Part shown: positions 10,458 through 61,495 of the stretch, in pieces
Layout: the number at the start of each line of letters is the position of its first letter
Position numbering within the stretch: the stretch's first letter is position 1
Assembly (NCBI GenBank): GCA_964035575.1
Contig: OZ037839.1
Coordinates: 1,612,001-1,676,000 of the forward strand
Direction: 5' to 3'
Source of the DNA: Rhynchopus sp. YZ270_cl-10
Taxonomy: Eukaryota
DNA: 64,000 nucleotides
Translations under genes and position numbers: made by a program
Notes under the pieces: generated by a model
What the model saw: the letters and a program-made list of their open reading frames with translations, nothing else
Databases searched by the model: none
Told to the model about the DNA's origin: nothing

Positions 10458-10512
<55 letters not shown>

Positions 10513-34939: not shown

Positions 34940-35221
34940 CTGTACTGTACTGTACTGTACTGTACTGTACTGTACTGTACTGTACTGTACTGTACTGTAC
35001 TGTACTGTACTGTACTGTACTGTACTGTACTGTACTGTACTGTACTGTACTGTACTGTACTGTACTGTACTGTACTGTACTGTACTGTACTGTACTGTAC
35101 TGTACTGTACTGTACTGTACTGTACTGTACTGTACTGTACTGTACTGTACTGTACTGTACTGTACTGTACTGTACTGTACTGTACTGTACTGTACTGTAC
35201 TGTACTGTACTGTACTGTACT
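34940..35221. repeat. (CTGTA)n microsatellite, ~56 copies
   Basis: Perfect 5-bp period. Confidence 0.98.
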
Positions 35222-35230
35222 CCCAATCCC

Positions 35231-35517
35231 CTGTGTATACTGTGTATACTGTGTATACTGTGTATACTGTGTATACTGTGTATACTGTGTATACTGTGTA
35301 TACTGTGTATACTGTGTATACTGTGTATACTGTGTATACTGTGTATACTGTGTATACTGTGTATACTGTGTATACTGTGTATACTGTGTATACTGTGTAT
35401 ACTGTGTATACTGTGTATACTGTGTATACTGTGTATACTGTGTATACTGTGTATACTGTGTATACTGTGTATACTGTGTATACTGTGTATACTGTGTATA
35501 CTGTGTATACTGTGTAT
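35231..35517. repeat. (CTGTGTATA)n microsatellite, ~32 copies
   Basis: Perfect 9-bp period, 9 bp downstream of the CTGTA tract. Confidence 0.98.
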
Positions 35518-35912
35518 GCTACCTGTGTGTGACCGTACCCCAGATGGTCTGAAGAGTGATCTGACCATATTCTCCAGGTACAATATATACCCGGAGAATC
35601 CATTGGAGCAAGAATTTTGCACTTTTGAGCACCACAGATTACATGTTGCCATTTTTGCGGTCATAATATTTTTGCAAATGGCAAAGGCAATCCTTAAGGA
35701 ATTACAGGGAAAACCACCGTTTTGGGTCTCTCTGTCTATGGGCGATTGGGTTTTAGTCACTCAACGAATCTGCTCGAATTTTTTTGTGTGTAGATAGGTT
35801 TTACCAGAAAAATCAATTAAAGCAAGAATTTTACGGTTTTGAATAGTTGTTCTTTATTTAAAAAAATACCCAGTTTGGACAAAAACTCAGGACCAAGTGT
35901 AAAAACGTTTAT

Positions 35913-37362
35913 CGAAGCGAGGTTGGCAACTGTGAAGGATCCTGAGGTGGCTTCTCTGCTTCTTCAGGCGGAGGTTGCGACTGTTATTCCGACCTCGTTC
36001 TTGAGCGAAGCATCGTTTACGAGACTTGATCTCTCTGCTGTGTCTGTTGTGACGCGAATTGAGCACGACTTCCTCTACGGGTGTGCGTCGGTGGAAACCG
36101 TTGACTTGTCGGCATTGTGCAACGTTACGCACATTGGGAATAACTGTCTCTCTTACAGCAAATCGTTGACAAGCCTTGACATGTCAGGGTTCACTGGTGT
36201 GACGGTGATACGGGAGTCGTTCCTCAAAGGAAGTGGCGTGACAGCGCTTGACTTATCCGCGATGACGAGTGTGACGGAGGTTGGTGCAGGCTTTCTTTAC
36301 TCCTGCAAGTCGTTGGAAAGGATTGACATCTCAGGATGGCGCAGAGTCACGCACATTGAGAAGGACTTCTTCACGAACTGCACCTCGTTGGCAACGATTG
36401 ATTTATCAGCTTTTTGCAGTGTCACCAATATCGGCTTCAGGTTTCTCTTCAACTGCAAGTCGTTGACCACCATCAGCTTTTCAGGGACGAATGTGACGGA
36501 AGTTGCGAGTCAATTTTGTAGGGCCTGCACCTCGTTGGAAACGATTGACTTGACAGCACTGCACAGAGTTGTGAAGGTAGGGTACAACTTTCTCTGGGGT
36601 TGCACCTCGCTGGGAAGTATCGACCTACCAGGTTTTGCATCCATCGGGCCCAACTTTCTTTTTCAGTGCACATCATTGAAAACAGTTGATTTATCAGTGT
36701 TGTGCAGCATCACGCACATTGAGCGTGGCTGGATGCAAGAGTGCTCCGCGTTGACAACAGCAGACTTCTCTGGACTGAGCAATGTTACGCAGATTGATGA
36801 ACGTTTCCTGCAAGATTGCACATCCTTGACTACGCTGGACATGTCAGGTTTTGGCAGGAATACAGAGATACAACACGACAGCCTGCTCAACTGCAACGCA
36901 CTCACAACAGTCGTCTTGCCAGGCAACATCGACATTGACGAGATGTTGTCTCTCCCGAATGGAGACCCTAGAATGAGCACCTACAAGGAGGCCTTCTATG
37001 TACGTGTGCGTGAGATTTACGCAAGGTTTACGGAACAGTTCGAAGATGTGCGGATAGAAGCTTTTGAGGCAGTACGAACAGACGTGTCTGGAGATGCAAG
37101 ACAATGTATTGCATTGAAAGCAGGACAAGAACGAGAGAAGGGATTGATGCAAGCACAAGAGGACAACAAAGAGGAACAAAAAGAGGATTTGGAGAGTTGG
37201 GGGCAGCATAAACAGGAGCAGGACAAGCTGGATGAACAGAGGGGTTTGGGGGTTTTGTGCAGTTATGTTACGAATACTTCAGTCATAATATTCAACTTCA
37301 GTTTTGGATACACCTGTAAGCTCCTGATAAGGGTCTTATTTACACTTTCTCTCGCAAGATGA
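35913..37362 (+). pseudogene. Ubl-LRR family copy A, 5'-truncated (Ubl domain missing), LRR frame still open
   Basis: Homology to the paralogues starts abruptly at CGAAGCGAGG (EARLAT). Upstream is TAAAAACGTTTAT plus the transposon end. About 13 BspA-type LRRs and the conserved EAFYVRVREIYARF tail. Confidence 0.75.
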
Positions 37363-42035: not shown

Positions 42036-44399
42036 ATGATGAAGTTGGTCGCAACTGTGAAGAAATTGTTCAAAGCAGGTGCGGATGTACGTGACACAGA
42101 TGCGCAAGGAAACACGTGTCTTATCCGTGCAGCGTATCAGGGACACACCGATACTGTGCGCTATCTTGTTAGCTTGCCGGAGGTGGACCTGAATCACGAA
42201 GGCAGCTACAACTACACTGCGTTGCACTTTGCTGTGGACAGAAAACATGCAGACGTGGTGCAGGTGCTCATTGATGCAGGGGCAGACATTGACACAAAGA
42301 ATGATAAAGGACGCTCGCCTCTGCACTTTGCTAGCTTTTCAGGAGAAGTCACGAATATGAAGATGTTGGTCGAGGCAGGTGCGGATGTACGTGCCACAGA
42401 CTACGATGGCAACACGTGTCTCATCCGTGCAGCGTATTTTGGACACACCGATGCTGTGCGCTATCTTCTGAGCTTGCCGGAGGTGGACCTGAATCACCAA
42501 GGCAGCCACAACTACACTGCGTTGCACCAGGCTGTACAGGAAAAACATGTAGACGTGGTGCAGGTGCTCATTGATGCAGGGGCAGACACTGAGACAAGGA
42601 ATGATGAAGGACACTCGCCTCTGCACTTGGCTAGCTTTTCAGGAGAACTCACAACTGTGAAGATGTTGGTCGAGGCAGGTGCGGATGTGCGTGTCACAGA
42701 AGCCGAAGGAAACACGTGTCTCATCCGTGCAGCGTATCAGGGACACACCGATACTGTGCGTTATCTTGTTAGCTTGCCGGAGGTGGACCTGAATCACCAA
42801 GGCAGCTACAACTACACTGCGTTGCACCATGCTGTACAGGAAAAACATGCAGACGTGGTGCAGGTGCTCATTGATGCAGGGGCAGACATTGAGACAAAGA
42901 ATGATGACGGACGCTCGCCTCTGCATGTGGCTAGCTTTTCAGGAGAACTCACAACTGTGAAGATGTTGGTCAAAGCAGGTGCGGATGTACGTGCCACAGA
43001 CGCCGAAGGAAACACGTGTCTTATCCTTGCAGCGTGTTGTGGACACACCGATACTGTGCGCTATCTTGTTAGCTTGCCGGAGGTGGACCTGAATCACGAA
43101 GGCAACAGGAACAGCACTGCGTTGCACCATGCTGTACGGGAAAAACATGCCGACGTGGTGCAGGTGCTCATTGATGCAGGGGCAGACATTGACACAAAGA
43201 ATGATGACGGACGCTCGCCTCTGCACGTGGCTAGCTTTTCAGGAGAACTCACAACTGTGAAAATGTTGGTCGAGGCAGGTGCGGATGTACGTGCCACAGA
43301 CGCCGAAGGAAACACGTGTCTCATCCGTGCAGCGTATTTTGGACACACCGATGCTGTGCGCTATCTTGTGAGCTTGCTGGAGATGGCCCTGAATCACGAA
43401 GGCAGCAGGAACAGCACTGCGTTGCACCGTGCTGTGGTAAGAAATCATGCAGACGTGGTGCAGGTGCTCATTGATGCAGGGGCAGACACTGAGACATGGA
43501 ATGATGAAGGACACTCGCCTCTGCACTTGGCTAGCTTTTCAGGAGAACTCACAACTGTGAAGATATTGGTCGAGGCAGGTGCGGATGTACGTGCCACAGA
43601 CGCCGAAGGAAACACGTGTCTTATCCGTGCAGCGTATCAGGGACACACCGATACTGTGCGCTATCTTGTTAGCTTGCCGGAGGTGGACCTGAAGCACCAA
43701 GGCAGCAGGAACAGCACTGCGTTGCACTTTGCCGTACAGGAAAAACATGCAGACGTGGTGCAGGTGCTCATTGATGCAGGGGCAGACATTGAGACAAGGA
43801 ATGATGACGGGCACTCGCCTCTGCACGTGGCTAGCATTTTAGGAGAACTCACAACTGTGAAGATGTTGGTCAAAGCAGGTGCGGATGTACGTGCCACAGA
43901 CACCAGAAGAGACACGTGTCTTCTCCTTGCAGCGTGTCATGGACACATCGATACTGTGCGCTATCTCGTTAGCTTGCCGGAGGTGGACCTGAAGCACGAA
44001 GGCAGCTACAACCACACTGCGTTGCACTTTGCTGTGGACAGAAAACATGCAGACGTGGTGCAGGTGCTCATTGATGCAGGGGCAGACACTGAGACATGGA
44101 ATGATGAAGGACACTCGCCTCTGCACTTGGCTAGCTTTTCAGGAGAACTCACAACTGTGAAGATATTGGTCGAGGCAGGTGCGGATGTACGTGCCACAGA
44201 CGCCGAAGGAAACACGTGTCTTATCCGTGCAGCGTATCAGGGACACACCGATACTGTGCGCTATCTTGTTAGCTTGCCGGAGGTGGACCTGAAGCACGAA
44301 GGCAGCTACAACCACACTGCGTTGCACTTTGCTGTGGACAGAAAACATGCAGACGTGGTGCAGGTGCTCATTGATGCAGGGGCAGACACTGAGCGTTAG
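42036..44399 (+). CDS. Ankyrin-repeat protein, ~8 x 100-aa units of 3 ANK repeats each, 3' end truncated
   Basis: GNTCLIRAA / TALHxAV / SPLHxAS ankyrin motifs with an exact 300-nt period. The ORF stops mid-unit (ADTER*), where unrelated sequence starts at ~44394. Confidence 0.85.
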   Translation: MMKLVATVKKLFKAGADVRDTDAQGNTCLIRAAYQGHTDTVRYLVSLPEVDLNHEGSYNYTALHFAVDRKHADVVQVLIDAGADIDTKNDKGRSPLHFASFSGEVTNMKMLVEAGADVRATDYDGNTCLIRAAYFGHTDAVRYLLSLPEVDLNHQGSHNYTALHQAVQEKHVDVVQVLIDAGADTETRNDEGHSPLHLASFSGELTTVKMLVEAGADVRVTEAEGNTCLIRAAYQGHTDTVRYLVSLPEVDLNHQGSYNYTALHHAVQEKHADVVQVLIDAGADIETKNDDGRSPLHVASFSGELTTVKMLVKAGADVRATDAEGNTCLILAACCGHTDTVRYLVSLPEVDLNHEGNRNSTALHHAVREKHADVVQVLIDAGADIDTKNDDGRSPLHVASFSGELTTVKMLVEAGADVRATDAEGNTCLIRAAYFGHTDAVRYLVSLLEMALNHEGSRNSTALHRAVVRNHADVVQVLIDAGADTETWNDEGHSPLHLASFSGELTTVKILVEAGADVRATDAEGNTCLIRAAYQGHTDTVRYLVSLPEVDLKHQGSRNSTALHFAVQEKHADVVQVLIDAGADIETRNDDGHSPLHVASILGELTTVKMLVKAGADVRATDTRRDTCLLLAACHGHIDTVRYLVSLPEVDLKHEGSYNHTALHFAVDRKHADVVQVLIDAGADTETWNDEGHSPLHLASFSGELTTVKILVEAGADVRATDAEGNTCLIRAAYQGHTDTVRYLVSLPEVDLKHEGSYNHTALHFAVDRKHADVVQVLIDAGADTER

Positions 44400-50782: not shown

Positions 50783-52017
50783 ACAGGAGTAGGACAAGCT
50801 GGATGAACAGAGGGGTTTGGGGGGTTTGGTGTTTTGTGTGAAGAACACTTCGGTTAAAATATCAACTTCATATTTGGATTCACTTTTGAGCTGGGGTGGA
50901 ATATTTGGCAGGTTTGGTGCACAACTCTGACAAGACGGAGTGTCCCACCACTTTTTGTGAACAACGTGTCTGCCCAGGGTCTTTTCTACCACACATAGTT
51001 AAGTGAAAAACAAACAAGAAAGCTATTTTGTTGTATCTTGCCTCCCTCCTCCTCCTTCTCAACACTTACCCCAAAACAGAGCAACACTTCACTCGAAACA
51101 ATGGAACTGTGTGTGCAGGGATATGATGATGACACCAAATTCGTGATTGAGGTGGGTGAGAAGGACACAACGGAGACGATGCGGCAGAAGGTGGCGTCTG
51201 CAACAGGGTTGTGCGAAGACAGCTTCCGCATGGGCTTCGGAGGGAAGGAGGAAGGAGAGGACATCACAGAACTGAGTGCTGGAGACACAGTCGTGTTGAC
51301 GAAAAATACTAAGTACCAATCTGTTGAGGAACTTCGTGCCTTGGGTGAGACAGACATTTCCGAAGCGAGGTTGGCGACTCCCGACGGCGGACCGCCCCCC
51401 ATAGCACATTTTTGCGGTGCACGGGCGTACGGGATTACTAGGGGATGGCTAGCTACCATGAACCCCTGTCCAAAGTATTAATATTTCTCGAAAATTCTCT
51501 AAGTACGCAGAAAACACACGGGTGTGCCCCAAAACACATTTTTTCCAGTGTCCCGCAGTGTCCCACCACTTTTTTTCGCTTTTGGTGGGAAAAAAAATAC
51601 AAAAAAAAATACATGGTTCTGTAGGGGCCGAGTACAATGGCGTTTTTCACGTGATTTTCATGATTTTTCAAAGTGGCCAAATATCATGTAAAATACTGCC
51701 TCCCACCCAACATTCTCTCCACAACGTCGTTCTGACACCCATATGTCCAAACAAAAGATGTTTTTATATATTTTTTTCCACACCCAGCGTATCATAAAAA
51801 TGCACATATCCACCAAAATCCACTAACCCACCGCAGGCAAATTTCTTAACGATGTGTACTTCTGAATTGATGCTGAGGGATTATGCGGCACCCGCTGCGT
51901 AGTTCTGTGGGGTAAAACGCCACCTGGGGTCACAAGCCCCAGCTCCTACCTTTACAGGTAGGAGAGCTGTTGAGTGACCCATCGGACAATCGTTTGAGGG
52001 GTCTTGGTGAAGAATTT

Positions 52018-54803
52018 CGAAAATTGATAAAAACGAATAAGCGTCTCACAATTGAACCCAGATTCTGCTCCAGATGTGATGTCTTGGTCTGTTTCTGCCT
52101 GAATTGTGTAAGGGGGCCCGATTTTGTTGCGGAAAATTACGAAAATTATTGAAAACCAATAAGCGCCTCACAATTGAACCCAGATTCTGCTCCAGATGCG
52201 ATGTTTTGGTCTGTTTCTGCCTGAATTGTGTAAGGGGGCCCGATTTTGTTGCGATAAATTACGAAAATTGATGAAAACAAATATGCGTCTCACAATTGAA
52301 CCCAGATTCTGCTCCATATGCGATGTTTTGATGTGTTTCGACCTGAATTGTGTGAGGGGGCCCGATTTTGTTGCGGAAAATTACGAAAATTGATGAAAAC
52401 TAATATGCGTCTCACAATTGAACCCAGATTCTGCTCCAGATACGATGTTTTGATGTGTTTCTGCCTGAATTGTGTAAGGGGGCCCGATTTTGTTGCGGAA
52501 AATTACGAAAATTATTGAAAACCAATAAGCGCCTCACAATTGAACCCAGATTCTGCTCCAGATGTGATGTCTTGGTCTGTTTCTGCCTGAATTGTGTAAG
52601 GGGGCCCGATTTTGTTGCGGAAAATTACGAAAATTATTGAAAACCAATAAGCGCCTCACAATTGAACCCAGATTCTGCTCCAGATGCGATGTTTTGGTCT
52701 GTTTCTGCCTGAATTGTGTAAGGGGGCCCGATTTTGTTGCGATAAATTACGAAAATTGATGAAAACAAATATGCGTCTCACAATTGAACCCAGATTCTGC
52801 TCCATATGCGATGTTTTGATGTGTTTCGACCTGAATTGTGTGAGGGGGCCCGATTTTGTTGCGGAAAATTACGAAAATTGATGAAAACAAATATGCGTCT
52901 CACAATTGAACCCAGATTCTGCTCCAGATGCGATGTTTTGATGTGTTTCTGCCTGAATTGTGTAAGGGGCCCCGATTTTGTTGCGGAAAATTACGAAAAT
53001 TATTGAAAACCAATAAGCGCCTCACAATTGAACCCAGATTCTGCTCCAGATACGATGTTTTGATGTGTTTCTGCCTGAATTGTGTAAGGGGGCCCGATTT
53101 TGTTGCGGAAAATTACGAAAATTGATGAAAACTAATATGCGTCTCACAATTGAACCCAGATTCTGCTCCAGATTCGATGTTTTGATGTGTTTCTGCCTGA
53201 ATTGTGTAAGGGGGCCCGATTTTGTTGCGGAAAATTACGAAAATTATTGAAAACAAATATGCGTCTCACAATTGAACCCAGATTCTGCTCCATATGCGAT
53301 GTTTTGATGTGTTTCGACCTGAATTGTGTGAGGGGGCCCGATTTTGTTGCGGAAAATTACGAAAATTATTGAAAACCAATAAGCGCCTCACAATTGAACC
53401 CAGATTCTGCTCCAGATACGATGTTTTGGTTTGTTTCTGCCTGAATTGTGTAAGGGGGCCCGATTTTGTTGCGGAAAATTACGAAAATTATTGAAAACCA
53501 CTAAGCGCCTCACAATTGAACCCAGATTCTGCTCCAGATACGATGTTTTGATGTGTTTCTGCCTGAATTGTGTAAGGGGGCCCGATTTTGTTGCGGAAAA
53601 TTACGAAAATTATTGAAAACCAATAAGCGCCTCACAATTGAACCCAGATTCTGCTCCAGATGCGATGTTTTGATGTGTTTCTGCCTGAATTGTGTAAGGG
53701 GGCCCGATTTTGTTGCGGAAAATTACGAAAATTATTGAAAACCAATAAGCGCCTCACAATTGAACCCAGATTCTGCTCCAGATACGATGTTTTGATGTGT
53801 TTCTGCCTGAATTGTGTAAGGGGGCCCGATTTTGTTGCGGAAAATTACGAAAATTATTGAAAACCAGTAAGCGCCTCACAATTGAACCCAGATTCTGCTC
53901 CAGATGCGATGTTTTGGTTTGTTTCTGCCTGAATTGTGTAAGGGGGCCCGATTTTGTTGCGGAAAATTACGAAAATTGATGAAAACAAATATGCGTCTCA
54001 CAATTGAACCCAGATTCTGCTCCAGATGCGATGTTTTGATGTGTTTCTGCCTGAATTGTGTAAGGGGGCCCGATTTTGTTGCGGAAAATTACGAAAATTA
54101 TTGAAAACCAATAAGCGCCTCACAATTGAACCCAGATTCTGCTCCAGATACGATGTTTTGATGTGTTTCTGCCTGAATTGTGTGAGGGGGCCCGATTTTG
54201 TTGCGGAAAATTACGAAAATTGATGAAAACAAATATGCGTCTCACAATTGAACCCAGATTCTGCTCCAGATGCGATGTTTTGATGTGTTTCTGCCTGAAT
54301 TGTGTGAGGGGGCCCGATTTTGTTGCGGAAAATTACGAAAATTATTGAAAACCAATAAGCGCCTCACAATTGAACCCAGATTCTGCTCCAGATGCGATGT
54401 TTTGGTCTGTTTCTGCCTGAATTGTGTGAGGGGGCCCGATTTTGTTGCTGAAGATTACGAAAATTGATTCTAACCAATAAGCGTCTCACAATTGAACCCA
54501 GATTCTGCTCCAGATATGATGTGTTGATGTGTTGCGACCTGAATTGTGTGAAGGGACCTGATTCTGTTCCTGCAGAATGTGACAATTCACGAAAACCAAT
54601 AATCGTCTCACAATTGAACCCAGATTCTGCTCCAGATGCGATGTTTTGGTCTGTTTCTGCCTGAATTGTGTGAGGGGGCCCGATTTTGTTGCTGAAGATT
54701 ACGAAAATTGATTCTAACCAATAAGCGTCTCACAATTGAACCCAGATTCTGCTCCAGATATGATGTTTTGGTCTGTTTCGATCTGATTTGTGTGATGGGG
54801 CCG
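52018..54803. repeat. 122-bp tandem repeat, ~23 diverged copies, inside the TIR element
   Basis: CTCACAATTGAACCCAGATTCTGCTCC at 52045, 52167 and onward. A 488-bp (4-unit) higher-order duplication is visible (52196 vs 52684). Confidence 0.97.
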
Positions 54804-54889
54804 GCTCAATATCTGATTATGTTACAGATATAATTGAACTTAGTGTGTGTCGTTATTTTTTAATTTTACTTTGTTACTGGGGGGGGGGC

Positions 54890-54940
54890 GAATAAGAGAT
54901 CAGGGGTGAATAAGAGATCAGGGCCGAATAAGAGATCAGG
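54890..54940. repeat. Three 15-bp direct repeats GAATAAGAGATCAGG at 18-bp spacing
   Basis: 54890-54904, 54908-54922 and 54926-54940. Confidence 0.9.
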
Positions 54941-55094
54941 TTGAGATTTTGGGGGTATTTTCAACTTACCTTCCTTCACCCCCCCCTGTAAGGGCAACCG
55001 TAGGTGAAGTAAGGTATAGTATTGAAATCGATGTGGGGGGGGAGTAAAGGGTCAATTTTACAAAACCAGATTTTGAGGAAAATTTTAGCCGAAA

Positions 55095-55797
55095 ATGGGC
55101 CCCACGTATAAGCAACCGGGCTCATATTTCTCAAAATTTAAGTGGTCAAAAAATTGTCCAATTTTCGAGATTGACCCCACCACTGCACGGGACCCAAACA
55201 CTGAGACGACCGGATTTGTGGTGAAGGACACGGACAGGGCTGAGAAGCGTTTCGGCCTGTTGGACGACGCCATCGACCACGCCACCAGAGGGCAACCATT
55301 TTCCTGGGAAGCTCCGCTGGTACTTGCCGTGAAGCGGGGAAACTTCAAGGGAAGGTTCCACACTGCTGCCACCCTGCAGGTGTACGCCATCCGGAAGGTG
55401 AACCGCAGAGTGACGGACGCTGTGCTGGCGGATGAGGCACGTGCTTGGGCAGCCCGTTGCTTGGAGACGTTGACGGAGACGCTGAATGCAGAGATTCAGC
55501 ACGTGATGAATGCGGCACGTGAGGCTGTGAGTATCCGTGTTGATGAACTTCGGGACTACCTGTGGCAGCGGAGGCGAACGCCGCACGTTGTGTCTTCCTT
55601 GTGTGACTTGGTGCGCAGGGGCATGGGTAGTGCTGTGCAGTGTGCGAAGCTGCGCGGTGGCAGCGACACAGTCCTGAGGAATTTGCTGGAGGACACAGTG
55701 GGTGCTACGAACGAACGCACGAACGACATGTCTGAGTCTGAAGATGACCGATCAGGAGCGGTGAGCTGCGAATTGTTCCCTGTGTCGGAGCCACCAC

Positions 55798-55829
<32 letters not shown>

Positions 55830-57284
55830 GCACCACCACCAGTACCAGCAGAAAGTCCGAGGAAGCGGAGGAGAGCTGGGACTGATGCATCCCAGAATGT
55901 TGCAAAGAAGCGTAAGCCTGCACCGAAGAACGGTCAGCAGCAACAGAAGCAGCAGCCACCACAGAAGAAACAGAAGCCACAGAAGCCACAGCAGAAGCCA
56001 CAGCAACCACAGCAGCCACAACAGCCACAGCAGAAGCCACAGCAACCACAACAGCCACAGCAGAAGCCACAGCAACCACAGCAGCCACAACAGCCACAGC
56101 AGAAGCCACAGCAACCACAGCAGCCACAACAGCCACAGCAGAAGCCACAGCAACCACAACAGCCACAGCAGAAGCCACAGCAACCACAGCAGCCACAACA
56201 GCCACAGCAGAAGCCACAGCAACCACAGCAGCAGCAGAACCCACACCAGCCAGGCGTTGGGGAGGCGGAGGAGATGGAGCAATTGCAGGCTGCCCTTGAT
56301 GCAACCCTCCACCAGCCTCCACCAGTGCCGAGGGGGTTCCATAACTTCGGCGTGACGTGTTTCATCAACTCTGTTTTACAGTGTTTAGTGTACACGGACT
56401 CGTTTGTGAAGTCCCTCTCGAATGCTGGCCCTTTTTCGAGGGCGATACGCGAAGTGGTGGCTCAGTCAGTGGCTGCCGATGCACAAGATGTGATCCGCCC
56501 TACGAGCATACGCGACGCATTAAATGTGAAGGAGCCTGGGTTCACGTATACGCAGCAAGACTGCCACGAGTTTTTTCTTGTGCTGACGGACGCCCTCGAG
56601 GTGGAGGCAAGACGTGGGAAAGTTAAACATCCCACCAACGAAGTGCTGGATCATGAGACTTTGTCTGTGGCCTCGGCACGAGTAGTGAACTCTTACCTCG
56701 AGAGTTCTAATTGTCCAGCAATGGGTTTTCTTTATCTACAGTATGTCCAGACAGCCACTTGTTTTGGCTGTGACACTAAGTGCCTCACCGTCACCCCCTC
56801 ACACAATATGATATTGCACTTCCCCACGCGGGACACCGGTTCATTGCCAGTGGCATTGGGTGCGTTACTTCAGCACCTCTCTAGGGTGGAAGAAATGCAC
56901 GCAGAGCAGGAGTACAAGTGCCTGACCTGCCACCCGCAGACCTTCGCAGCCAGAATGGTGACACGTGTGATGCGGCTGCCAAATGTTTTGGCAATGCAAT
57001 TGGCGAGGTTTCACGACCCGCTCAATAAGATCGAGACGATCGTTGAACTTCCGCATGAGTTGGACATGGCACCATACGTGCACTCTGACTCTCTAGAGGT
57101 GCAACTTCGGTATGACCTGTATGGTGTTGTCTGTCACCACGGACACAGGATGGGGCACGGCCACTACAGTGCATACGTGAAGTCAGAGGGTACGTGGTAT
57201 CATTGCAATGATTCAAGTGTGACAAAGAACCCGAGGCTTCTCTTTTCAGAGGCATACCTTCTTTTTTATCATCGTCGGGGGTGA
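55095..57284 (+). CDS. Ubiquitin-specific protease (USP, peptidase C19) with basic NLS-like motif and Q/P-rich linker; true start uncertain
   Basis: Cys box GFHNFGVTCFINSVLQCL, QQDCHEF, Zn-ribbon CFGC/CLTC, His box YDLYGVVCHHG..GHYSAYVK, WYHCNDSSV and AYLLFY. PRKRRR/AKKRK basic motif. The first ~28 codons overlap an AT-rich inverted repeat and may be non-coding. Confidence 0.88.
55935..56238 (+). repeat. Coding low-complexity repeat (PQQ/PQQK)n within the USP ORF
   Basis: CCACAGCAG/CAA/AAG 9-12-nt units. Confidence 0.9.
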
Positions 57285-60200
57285 TTCTTTTTGGTGCATC
57301 GAGACGTTACGTGTTCTTTATAAGATTGTCTGATGGAGGCAGTATCGGCGACAGTGGGGGAAATAGAGGGGGGTATGAGTTCAGAGAGACTGGGGTTATT
57401 GTCTCAGGACCGAGTCAGGTAGTTGAACTTCATCCTTTTTTAAATAGTGTGGATCTTTGCAGTCGTCGGTTATGTCTGAAAATTCTTAAGTCCACTTTGT
57501 GAGGGCCTTTCATTAACATTAAAGGCCACTTTTGTTTTTTTTTTTCACGAATTGTTTCTCTCTCGCCTTGTCTTCATTTCAAGTTATGCCACACCCCTCT
57601 CAGCAGCCTGCTGATCAGAGTAAATGTTAAAGTATCAGCCTTTCTAGGTGTTCTTGAGTGAACAATGCAAGCTTCCTCTCCAAAGCTTTTCTGTTGCGAT
57701 TCTTTCTATTTGTTCCGATTTAGCCTTTTCACAAGTTGTGTAATATTTGCAAGCACTCTGTTTTGTCAGTTTCTCTTCCTTCTTCGACCAACAAAGATAC
57801 CACACCACCCCAGACCCTTTCCAATTTTTCATTTCCTCTATTCTTCCCATCCAAGCCCTCCCCACACAATTCTGTTCCAGATGTAAATCTTGCCATAATT
57901 AAACCATTTCTGTAATCTGTGATCGTGCCGCAGGCGCAAGCGGCACTTGAAACATTTGAAACAACATTGTATTGTGCTAATTGGTCGCCACCTGAAGTAT
58001 CCGTAATTGAACTAGTTATCAAATCTGTGGTCAGTCTCATGGACGAATCATTGAATGCTGCATGCGCTGCCGACAATTGAAACGTTTGAAACAATATTGT
58101 ATTGTACCAATTCACGCGAGAGCCCCCAACCCCAAAATTCTGGGAGGAAAAAAAGGGGGAAATAAAAAATAAAAAAAAAATAAAAAAAATGCCGGAAAAC
58201 GCCTAAGTACAAAATAATACTTTGGACAGCTTTTTGTGAAGGAATTACCCTAGCTATCCACCCCCTAGGATTAGTATCTTTTTTTGAGAGAACCCAAGAG
58301 CGGCCAGGTCCTGGACAAGTACGTTGTGCTTTTAGACCTACAAACTGTCTGGGGTGGTGGGACCTCGGGGCGAAGGGTGCTTCCCGGGACCCCAATATCC
58401 TACCACAAGGAGCTCGAGTCGTGCATGGAATGCAGGGTACTCTGAGCCGATTACTTCCACAAAACTCCCAGATCCCAAGACCTCCACGGGGGGCAGGCCT
58501 CCACGGCAACCCGCGACCGCCGACACCTTAGCTCCGTACTGCCTCTGTCTGTAACCTGCCGGTCCCCCACCTACCTACGCTTTTTGTGGTGTCTTTTTAC
58601 GACGGTGGACCAAGGGGCTTTGCAGTGCAGTCAACGCCGACGGAGCGAGACTCGATTGTGACCGGGTGAAAAGGGAACCTTAGCCAGCGCTAACCAGCGG
58701 CAGTTTTGACTCAGGGAAGGAGTTTCTCACCGCAGACTGGCGACACACCCCCACTTTTTCGGGGTGGCTGCATTCCTCTTCGGAACGGGGTGTTCCATCC
58801 TATTTTTAAAAACGTTTATCGAAGCGAGGTTGGCGACTGTGAGGGATCCTGAGGTGGCTTCTCTGCTTCTTCAGGCGGAGGTTGCGACTGTTATTCCGAA
58901 CTGGTTCTTGAGCGGAGCATCGTTTACGAGACTTGATCTCTCTGCTGTGTCTGGTGTGACACGAATTGAGCACAACTTCCTCTACGGGTGTGCGTCGGTG
59001 GAAACTGTTGACTTGTCGGGATTGTGCAACGTTACGCACATCGGGAGTTGCGTTCTCTCTTACAGCACCTCGTTGACAAGTCTTGACATCTCAGGATGGC
59101 GCAGAGTCACGCACATTGAGAACAACTTCCTCCAGAACTGGACCTCGTTGGCAACCATTGATTTATCAGCTTTTTGCAGTGTCACGAAGATCGGCACCGC
59201 CTTTCTCGTCAACTGCAAGTCGTTGACCACCATCAGCTTTTCAGGGATGACGAATGTGATGGAAATTGAGGACAACTTTTGTTCATGCTGCACCTCGTTG
59301 GAAACGATTGACTTGACAGCACTGCACAGGGTTGTGAAGGTGGGGTACGGCTTTCTTACGAGGTGCAGATCGCTGGGAAGTATCGACCTTTCAGCTTTCG
59401 GCAGTGTCGCTGTCATTGGGTTCAACTTTTTCAGTGCTCATCATTGAAAACAGTTGATTTATCAGTGTTGCGCAGCATCAAGTGCATTGAGCGAAACTGG
59501 ATGCACGGGTGCTCCGCGTTGACAACAGCAGACTTATCAGGACTGAGCAATGTTGAGAACATTGCGACACGTTTCCTGGATGCGTGCACATCCTTGACCA
59601 CGCTGGACATGTCAGGTATAGGCTGTGACACAAGGATCGGCGACGACTTCCTGCTCGACTGCAACGCACTCATAAGAGTAGTATTGCCAGGCAACATCGA
59701 CATTGACGAGATGTTGTCTCTCCCGATTGAAGACGATGATACGAGTGAAGAAAGCATTGCCAGAAGCGAGGCCTTCTATGTACGTGTGCGTGAGATTTAC
59801 GCAAGGTTTACGGAACAGTTCGAAGATGTGCGGATAGAAGCTTTTGAGGCAGTACGAACAGACGTGTCTGGAAGTGCAAGACAATGTATTGCATTGAAAG
59901 CAGGACAAGAGAGAGAAGGGATTGATGCAAGCACAAGAGGACAAAGAAGAGGAACAAAAAGAGGATTTGGAGAGTTGGGGGCAGCATAAACAGGAGCAGG
60001 ACAAGCTGGATGAACAGAGGGGTTTGGGGGGTTTGGTGATTTGTGTGAGTTGTTTTTTTTACAAGACATGTGTGCATTTCTAGTGGTTCAAACCAGTACG
60101 AACATTACTTCAACACACAAAGTATTATTGTTATCCACAACAACCGTAGTTGGGTTGTGAGGACGTGGCACATGGTGTGCACACCACGCTGCGCATATGC

Positions 60201-60559: not shown

Positions 60560-61495
60560 ATGAGCCTCAAACTCGTAAAGTCTATGTGGGGAGTGGACGA
60601 GCTTGCTGACCCTGCCCTTCGCAAGACTATGTTCGCACGCGTCGTGGCAGAGGGCTACGAAGCCGTGGACATGCACGCTGTATGCTGGCGGCACCCTGGC
60701 GTGCTTGACGACCTGCACACTGCGGGGCTTGCCCTGGTAGCAACGATACACACGACGTCTGTCTGTGACGCAGGGTTCGAAGGGTTCAAGGTTATGACGG
60801 CATGGGGTGTTCATGAGCACCTAGCGTCGTTTACGATGCTTGCAAACGAGGCTGCCAAAATGGGTGCCATCGCGATCAACGCACACAGCGGTGTCGATGG
60901 GTGGAGCGTCGACGAGGCCCGCACCTACCTCCGCGGCGCGCTTGCTGTGGAACGCTCTTTGTCCCCATCCGTCCCCATCTTCCACGAGACGCACCGCCTG
61001 CGTCTCTTCTGGAGCCCCTTCAACCTGCGCGATGTGCTGCAAGGTGCTGACGACCTGGCCGACATTAAGCTGAACTGCGACATCTCACACTGGGTTGTCT
61101 GTTTGGAACGACTCTTTGGGAGTGGATCATCGATTGCAGGAGCACAGCACGACCCATGGTGGCCAGAGGTGCTGGGGATGCTCAAGGCGCGTTGTGGCAT
61201 GATCCATGCGCGTGTGGGGTATGGAGAAGGCTCGCAGGTGCCCAACCCCGCAGCACCTGAGTATGCAACAGAGCTAACCGCCTTCCTCGGGTACTGGAAG
61301 GAGATCGTGCAGGCGCAGGTGGCAAGGAAAACGCCCAGCATTGTAGTCCCGGAGCACGGCCCCTGGCCGTATCAGCAGAGTGTGCCGTTTGCAGCGACGG
61401 CACCGAACCACAGCATCTGGGAGGCAAATGAGTTTGTGAAGACGGTGGTGGCGGAACGCTTCCCGCAGTGGGTGGAGGAGGTGGGGGAGGTGTGA
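60560..61495 (+). CDS. Xylose isomerase-like TIM-barrel protein (sugar phosphate isomerase/epimerase family), 311 aa
   Basis: Motifs KSMWG, INAHSG, HETHR, DISHW, IHARVG..QVPNP and PEHGP. The ATG at 60560 follows a pyrimidine-rich CAG. Confidence 0.8.
   Translation: MSLKLVKSMWGVDELADPALRKTMFARVVAEGYEAVDMHAVCWRHPGVLDDLHTAGLALVATIHTTSVCDAGFEGFKVMTAWGVHEHLASFTMLANEAAKMGAIAINAHSGVDGWSVDEARTYLRGALAVERSLSPSVPIFHETHRLRLFWSPFNLRDVLQGADDLADIKLNCDISHWVVCLERLFGSGSSIAGAQHDPWWPEVLGMLKARCGMIHARVGYGEGSQVPNPAAPEYATELTAFLGYWKEIVQAQVARKTPSIVVPEHGPWPYQQSVPFAATAPNHSIWEANEFVKTVVAERFPQWVEEVGEV

Follow-up and report, generated by a model that had tools for sequence, protein, structure and literature searches.

The window (the whole 64,000-nucleotide stretch of DNA that was analysed) contains an element of 6,829 bp, bounded by terminal inverted repeats (TIRs) from 51439 to 58267, which is likely a non-autonomous cut-and-paste DNA transposon mobilised in trans, and which carries a whole gene for a predicted deubiquitinase of the USP type (C19). 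The explanation that we prefer, and to which we give about an even chance, rests on analogy: an element that lacks a transposase would have kept a whole USP gene as an old accessory factor aiding its own spread. The copy in the window lies within a second, abundant repeat, which itself interrupts a gene of the Ubl-LRR type.

Results

The USP gene and its product

The gene is a single open reading frame (ORF) of 729 codons on the forward strand, open throughout, with a predicted product of 729 amino acids.

55095..57284, + strand: the 729-aa ORF, comprising a repeat-derived start, an unassigned, predicted helical region (residues 36-230), basic clusters (257-274), a Pro/Gln repeat and the USP domain.
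56334..57269, + strand: the C19/USP catalytic domain, with C422, H690 and D706 and two CxxC pairs.

Residues 414-725 constitute the C19/USP domain (Pfam UCH, E 1.6e-44, 152.8 bits against a cut-off of 23.9), and the best match of the ORF in the PDB is human USP2 (E 9.4e-28). The Cys box (N417/C422), H690 and N705/D706 all align to USP2, and the further USP boxes are present as QQD at 487-489 and as CxxC zinc pairs at 556/559 and 609/612; the original prediction of an intact, intronless USP with all of its catalytic boxes is thereby upheld. An alignment with 29 other USPs has 34 columns of 90% conservation or more; the element USP keeps 32 of these, the two changes being K to R and K to A, and retention on this scale at about 30% identity indicates a lineage under long constraint as a USP. 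The modelled domain (pLDDT 83.6) has the thumb-palm-fingers fold and matches USP2 (TM 0.84, and 0.84-0.87 over USP2 and USP15). From its sequence the enzyme is predicted to be an active deubiquitinase, and its intact state may reflect nothing beyond the youth of the copies. Two basic clusters, at residues 257-260 and 271-274, bear out the earlier mention of an NLS-like motif; we take them to resemble a putative bipartite NLS.

The origin of the ORF start

The 5' end of the ORF merges with repetitive DNA, in a part of the element that also contains a long tandem array.

52013..54802, no strand assigned: internal tandem array, 22.9 copies of 122 bp with 92% matches.
54956..55193, + strand: partial unit of a ~270-bp tandem repeat, supplying the pyrimidine tract, the ATG and ORF codons 1-33.

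Ten short predicted proteins, at ten loci on contigs that all differ in length, begin with ORF codons 1-32 and continue into the sequence of 54956-55108, from which it follows that codons 1-33 are part of the ~270-bp tandem unit. These ten loci may be other copies of the element, and the numbers agree. Being repeat-derived, the ATG may be fortuitous; a further, out-of-frame ATG lies 64 nt upstream, and for both reasons the true start and the translation of the ORF are uncertain.

Residues 36-230 have a coding-like third-position GC of 0.68 and are predicted, at low confidence, to be helical (single-sequence model, pLDDT 54.6). Residues 1-232 had no match in Pfam, Atlas or a word search, and none in Foldseek at E 0.001 or better, while HMMER over 1.84 billion representatives returned six matches to the N-terminal region, none of them transposase-like. 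One of these six, P0128 (E 1e-4), is repetitive and was set aside as a chance match. P0125, a protein of 61 aa, is 66% identical to ORF residues 33-86 and then stops. The description of an unrecognised N-terminal region of about 200 aa thus stands in so far as residues 1-232 are without a match, but codons 1-33 have to be reassigned to the tandem repeat unit.

Termini, target duplication and coding content of the TIR element

The ends of the element and its left target duplication are placed as follows.

51432..51438, no strand assigned: left target duplication, GGATTA plus one C; 5, 6 or 7 bp depending on end placement.
51439..51480, + strand: left TIR, with a 17-nt terminal block (51439-51455) and a 15-nt inner block (51466-51480).
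58215..58267, - strand: right TIR, with its inner block at 58215-58229 and terminal block at 58251-58267.

The TIRs are imperfect, with 15 of 17 terminal nucleotides paired in addition to the 15-nt inner block. A pattern drawn from these ends has exactly two matches in the window, the ends themselves (51439-51455 on the + strand and 58251-58267 on the - strand), against 0.02 expected by chance, and the local alignment of the two ends scores above all of 1000 shuffles. The same pattern had no match in viral contigs. GGATTA is found on both sides of the element and once in the empty form, the empty site being represented in all four runs (three studies) by contigs that join the sequence ending at 51431 directly to 58268.

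The duplication can be placed in three ways. At 5 bp it is perfect and leaves CTAG ends; at 6 bp it is again perfect but leaves the ends uneven; at 7 bp it contains one mismatch and the ends are TAGGG. The canonical 8-bp duplication of hAT elements does not fit. TIRs that start with TAGGG are, we presume, hAT-like, and the element likely represents a hAT-like family. Subgroups of hAT with 5-, 6- and 7-bp duplications are described in the available text of PMC12730594. Compared with the non-autonomous hAT elements of that account, including hAT5, hAT6 and hAT7, the present element is alike in its short imperfect TIRs, its subterminal motifs and a duplication of 5-7 bp within the subgroup range, but differs in having no transposase to confirm the superfamily, in the ambiguous length of its duplication and in that 8 bp does not fit.

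There are 16 stop-free stretches of at least 90 codons in the element, among which no transposase-like frame was recognised by eye. Fifteen of the 16, those besides the ORF, overlap the ORF or sit in low-complexity flanks, as judged by eye, in keeping with the original view of the USP as the only credible ORF within the TIRs. In the left arm, sequence at 51540-51840 has related subfamilies at 85-92% identity with depths of 490-790, which could include an autonomous partner. A short hairpin-rich stretch of the same arm, 51904-51987, is about 10-30 times deeper than the sequence on either side, a sign that it is common to another abundant repeat; it matches no Rfam family at threshold.

These features bear on the idea that the element is a deletion derivative, in which the ORF would be the tail of a transposase-USP fusion, repeats would have replaced the transposase part and the USP would owe its intact state solely to the recency of the deletion. 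The merging of the ORF 5' end into a tandem repeat and the existence of related arm subfamilies both speak for it, as does the usual position of transposon proteases, fused to or beside the transposase, in what is accessible of PMC2836005 and PMC11417382. We nevertheless regard it as unlikely, given that no transposase remnant was found in the N-terminal region: residues 1-232 match no transposase in Pfam, in HMMER over the 1.84 billion representatives or by their low-confidence fold, and inspection of the 16 stop-free stretches was equally negative.

A 604-bp outer element interrupts the Ubl-LRR gene

Beyond the target duplication of the inner, TIR-bounded element, the flanking sequence resolves into a second insertion and the two parts of a gene.

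51101..51379, + strand: 5' part of a Ubl-LRR gene (Ubl domain and linker, 93 codons; ubiquitin family E 3e-05, below the curated cut-off).
51361..51379, + strand: left copy of the outer element's 19-bp target duplication, 19/19 identical to 58820-58838.
51380..51431, + strand: 5' piece of the outer element (52 bp), whose loose ends join to 58268 in 4/4 runs and which, in X1 and X4, is about 10 times deeper than the inner arm.
58268..58819, + strand: 3' piece of the outer element (552 bp), starting with the right inner target duplication and ending in a 13-nt terminus common to another insertion.
58820..58838, + strand: right copy of the 19-bp target duplication, identical to the left copy.
58839..59989, + strand: 3' part of the Ubl-LRR gene, in which the frame closes after 202 codons.

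The 19-bp stretch occurs once in all five of the intact sister Ubl-LRR genes and twice in the interrupted copy, around an insert of 7,440 bp, and the empty site that joins 51431 to 58268 establishes that the 52- and 552-bp flanks form one element of 604 bp. It is this outer element, with its 19-bp duplication, that split the Ubl-LRR gene, and the inner element is nested within it; the original prediction of an insertion in a Ubl-LRR gene was right about the interrupted gene but not about the immediate target of the TIR element. The early closure of the 3' frame indicates that the interrupted gene carries a second lesion.

The outer element has no ORF longer than 104 codons. In X4 its empty form is about nine times deeper than the USP contig (9952 against 1064), and the outer element has about 90 times the depth of low-copy contigs. 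Its 3' end gives way to varied flanks behind 58812 (10-13 contigs in each run, with an agreement of about 0.5); varied sequence is also found upstream of 58761, in ten X3 contigs, and several families seem to share the last ~60 nt. The long duplication and the shared 3' ends suggest a SINE-like element. A different insertion, with a 3' end unrelated to the USP element, ends with the same 13 nt at 35912, which is exactly the same site in a different Ubl-LRR copy, and this second insertion (35900-35931) suggests a target hot spot. It has a 12-nt word in common with the outer 5' piece (E 0.14).

Part of the first 90 nt of the outer element resembles what we take to be the Pr77 hallmark of ingi/RIME. 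An ingi-clade assignment is not supported, with no CGTG at +25 to +28, a duplication of 19 bp rather than 11-12, and no poly(A). An HDV-like ribozyme at the outer 5' end is likewise without support: its helices need non-canonical linkers, the fold has a z of +0.8 and the split copy in the window has no Rfam match. The outer element is nonetheless comparable to RIME, NARTc and SIDER, as far as the available parts of PMC3383444, PMC4035085 and PMC4748587 describe them, in being short, non-coding and of very high copy with a long duplication; it is unlike them in the length of that duplication (19 bp against 11-12 bp) and in being without poly(A), CGTG at +25 to +28 or a clean HDV-like fold.

The nesting also bears on a suggested conflict with the Ubl-LRR array, whereby the USP would counter ubiquitin-linked receptors and the element would be targeted to them. 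The element does sit among clustered Ubl-LRR genes, and fusions to ubiquitin-like proteins can be cleaved by USPs. Yet we judge this very improbable: the direct target was the outer element, far deeper in its empty form than the USP; that repeat has many other flanks; the TIR element itself appears to have several; and a sister gene bears, at the same site, a 3' end that has nothing to do with the USP. The hint of conflict that the position had been taken to give is accordingly not supported, since a direct target that is a common 604-bp repeat leaves the place among Ubl-LRR genes in need of no special explanation.

Copy number and linkage of the USP to the TIR element

Copies were judged from contig depth, which is not equivalent to copy number, in runs of which X1-X3 possibly include the source of the window; the contig pieces compared lie outside the 122-bp array and the 5' half of the ORF, and runs with small shares (X5 and X7-X12) play no part in the evidence. 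Depths of the USP contig and of a diverged USP contig were 694 and 104 in X1, 3220 and 329 in X3, and 1064 and 112 in X4 (ratios 6.7, 9.8 and 9.5), the depth of the diverged contig being similar to that of other diverged contigs of the same runs. Left-arm contigs had depths of 1016 (X1), 2845 (X3) and 991 (X4), giving USP:arm ratios of 0.7, 1.1 and 1.1, so that the USP and the left arm stand at roughly 1:1. From these depths we infer about 7-10 near-identical copies of the element at several sites. The first TIR base, 51439, is precisely where one X1 contig (depth 1113) starts, which is what convergence of several flanks would produce; counting against it, the outermost 100 nt of the left arm are shallow in X4, with depths of 74-362 where sequence further in stands at about 990.

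The copies are young, to judge by an X1 contig that spans the USP and 460 nt downstream with one difference in 1271 nt. The diverged, low-depth USP contig is 82-87% identical to the window USP and spans 530 nt where the window has 523; the net gain of 7 nt, not a multiple of three, suggests a frameshifted relic, and this copy looks decayed, as any transposon gene copy would. Diverged, low-depth copies of the left arm show 9 differences in 68 nt and 12 in 89 nt, near 87% identity. The contigs thus point to older, diverged copies of the element at 82-88% identity, and divergence of both USP and arm fits a long association. Among the contigs listed, this diverged and apparently frameshifted one is the only USP-like contig of at least 82% identity outside the near-identical set, into whose contigs a near-identical host parent would collapse. 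The claim that an apparently multicopy TIR element carries the USP as cargo is sustained by the empty site and by a USP depth close to that of the left arm; a single-copy USP unlinked to the TIRs was looked for by contig depth and not seen.

Relatives of the element USP

Over the full domain the element USP is about 30%, and at most 32%, identical to any relative in two word searches (137 and 28 matches). Metagenome contigs contained three loci at 23-33% identity, and viral contigs none. A viral origin of the USP is without support: identity to viral structures reaches 25% at most, and to cellular structures 28%. In a quick tree whose 53 rows were picked from the matches for full-domain coverage and include no host-lineage USP, the element USP is an unplaced long branch that groups with no sampled cellular subfamily. 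It resembles the catalytic domains of human USP2, USP15 and USP8 in fold (TM 0.84-0.87), triad and zinc finger, but is only 23-28% identical to them and falls outside any subfamily placement.

A Pack-type origin would make the USP a passenger, that is, a fast-evolving host gene captured whole, recently and without benefit, whose copies will decay. We consider this possible, if doubtful. The element has no transposase, its copies are near-identical and hence young, repeat DNA supplies the start codon of its ORF, as would happen in a chimeric capture, the low-depth diverged contig could be the host parent or a paralogue, and Pack-TIRs are known (PMC8277862, available text). That diverged contig, however, suggests a frameshifted relic by its net +7 nt; P0125, 66% identical to residues 33-86, breaks off at 61 aa; arm copies exist that are equally diverged; and the USP has no sampled cellular subfamily to group with, though in a tree without host-lineage USPs. 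On balance we lean towards the reading of an old accessory factor.

Other features of the window

From 35913 to 59989 the window is occupied by an array of intronless genes combining Ubl and BspA-type LRR, in which the Ubl ends are near-identical and the LRR surface positions variable; the very high contig depth of these genes suggests a large family. A 787-aa ankyrin gene at 42036-44399 is flanked by Ubl-LRR genes. Positions 60560-61495 hold an ORF of 311 aa with no Pfam match, which on inspection resembles a bacterial-type TIM barrel of the sugar-phosphate isomerases. Exact look-ups of proteins from the window recovered one of 8 in one case and none of 10 in another. The first 34 kb (1-33947) are a satellite (83.7 copies of 406 bp, 98% matches) within which are found a long palindrome and, at 10458-10509, an A52 run; lying upstream of the end of the second insertion, it may be inside that insertion. 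Perfect microsatellites (5 bp x 56 and 9 bp x 32) occupy 34940-35517. Genes in the window form intronless same-strand arrays with pyrimidine tracts before the ATG, a layout that suggests a trans-splicing protist such as a euglenozoan.

Discussion

Proteases of the ubiquitin system are recurrent cargo of DNA transposons. In the accessible portions of the sources, Ulp1 and OTU are reported on Ginger, Mutator and Helitron elements, together with a transposase-C19 fusion in Trichomonas, XP_001314237.1 (PMC2836005), UCH is stably captured in HLE2 elements (PMC11417382), and the VTD domains of Helentrons are active deubiquitinases, proposed to protect transposition proteins (PMC9741609); PMC3597677 does not mention C19, ubiquitin or protease. 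C19 cargo is therefore less unusual than originally stated (PMC2836005, PMC11417382), and the USP transposon is not a new class of system. What it has in common with the Ulp1/OTU of Ginger1 and Mutator, the OTU/VTD/UCH of Helentrons and the Trichomonas C19 fusion is that a DNA transposon harbours a ubiquitin-system cysteine protease whose catalytic residues are intact; C19/UCH is on record twice. Those elements, as far as their descriptions are available, are autonomous, and their transposase or RepHel either includes the domain or lies next to it. The present TIR element, transposase-less and apparently multiplied in recent times, has a stand-alone USP gene as its sole recognisable coding content. 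Pack-TIRs and Pack-MULEs (PMC8277862 and PMC8903248, accessible text) are alike in being non-autonomous TIR shells with coding DNA, but their cargo consists of fragments close to the parent gene, whereas here an entire gene for an enzyme is carried, highly diverged and without an identified host parent. C19 domains on transposons are already published; a stand-alone USP in a transposase-less TIR element, and this family, were not found in the literature searched, subscription journals and Repbase being outside its coverage.

Under the accessory-factor reading, a transposase encoded elsewhere would move the non-autonomous element. By analogy with the systems above, the USP would enter the nucleus through its basic clusters and deubiquitinate the partner transposase or the chromatin at the elements, and removal of ubiquitin might then limit degradation of transposition proteins or silencing of the elements. 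The copy in the window inserted into an abundant SINE-like repeat of 604 bp by which a Ubl-LRR gene had already been split, and its surroundings are incidental.

A more specific proposal, which we offer as a decidedly unlikely one, is that the element represents a new protist DNA-transposon family in which the stand-alone USP is a cis-acting anti-silencing factor, its N-terminal helical region binding the 122-bp and ~270-bp arrays and the USP stripping chromatin ubiquitin there. If true, this would be a ubiquitin-based parallel to VANDAL/VANC (PMC10398659 and PMC5735166, available text). It would then be understandable that an element without a transposase keeps, and amplifies, a working enzyme.

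Why transposons repeatedly acquire ubiquitin and SUMO proteases is a question for which roles are only suggested in the available text of PMC2836005 and PMC9741609. A young, multicopy element with a USP as its only gene separates the protease from the transposase, and hence makes both the substrate and the effect on transposition directly testable. No DNA transposons were found in 57 trypanosomatids (PMC12278014), and MULE- and Helitron-like ORFs are reported from Diplonema (PMC10161547). If the host is a euglenozoan, as the gene layout hints, the element would add to the short list of DNA transposons in that group.
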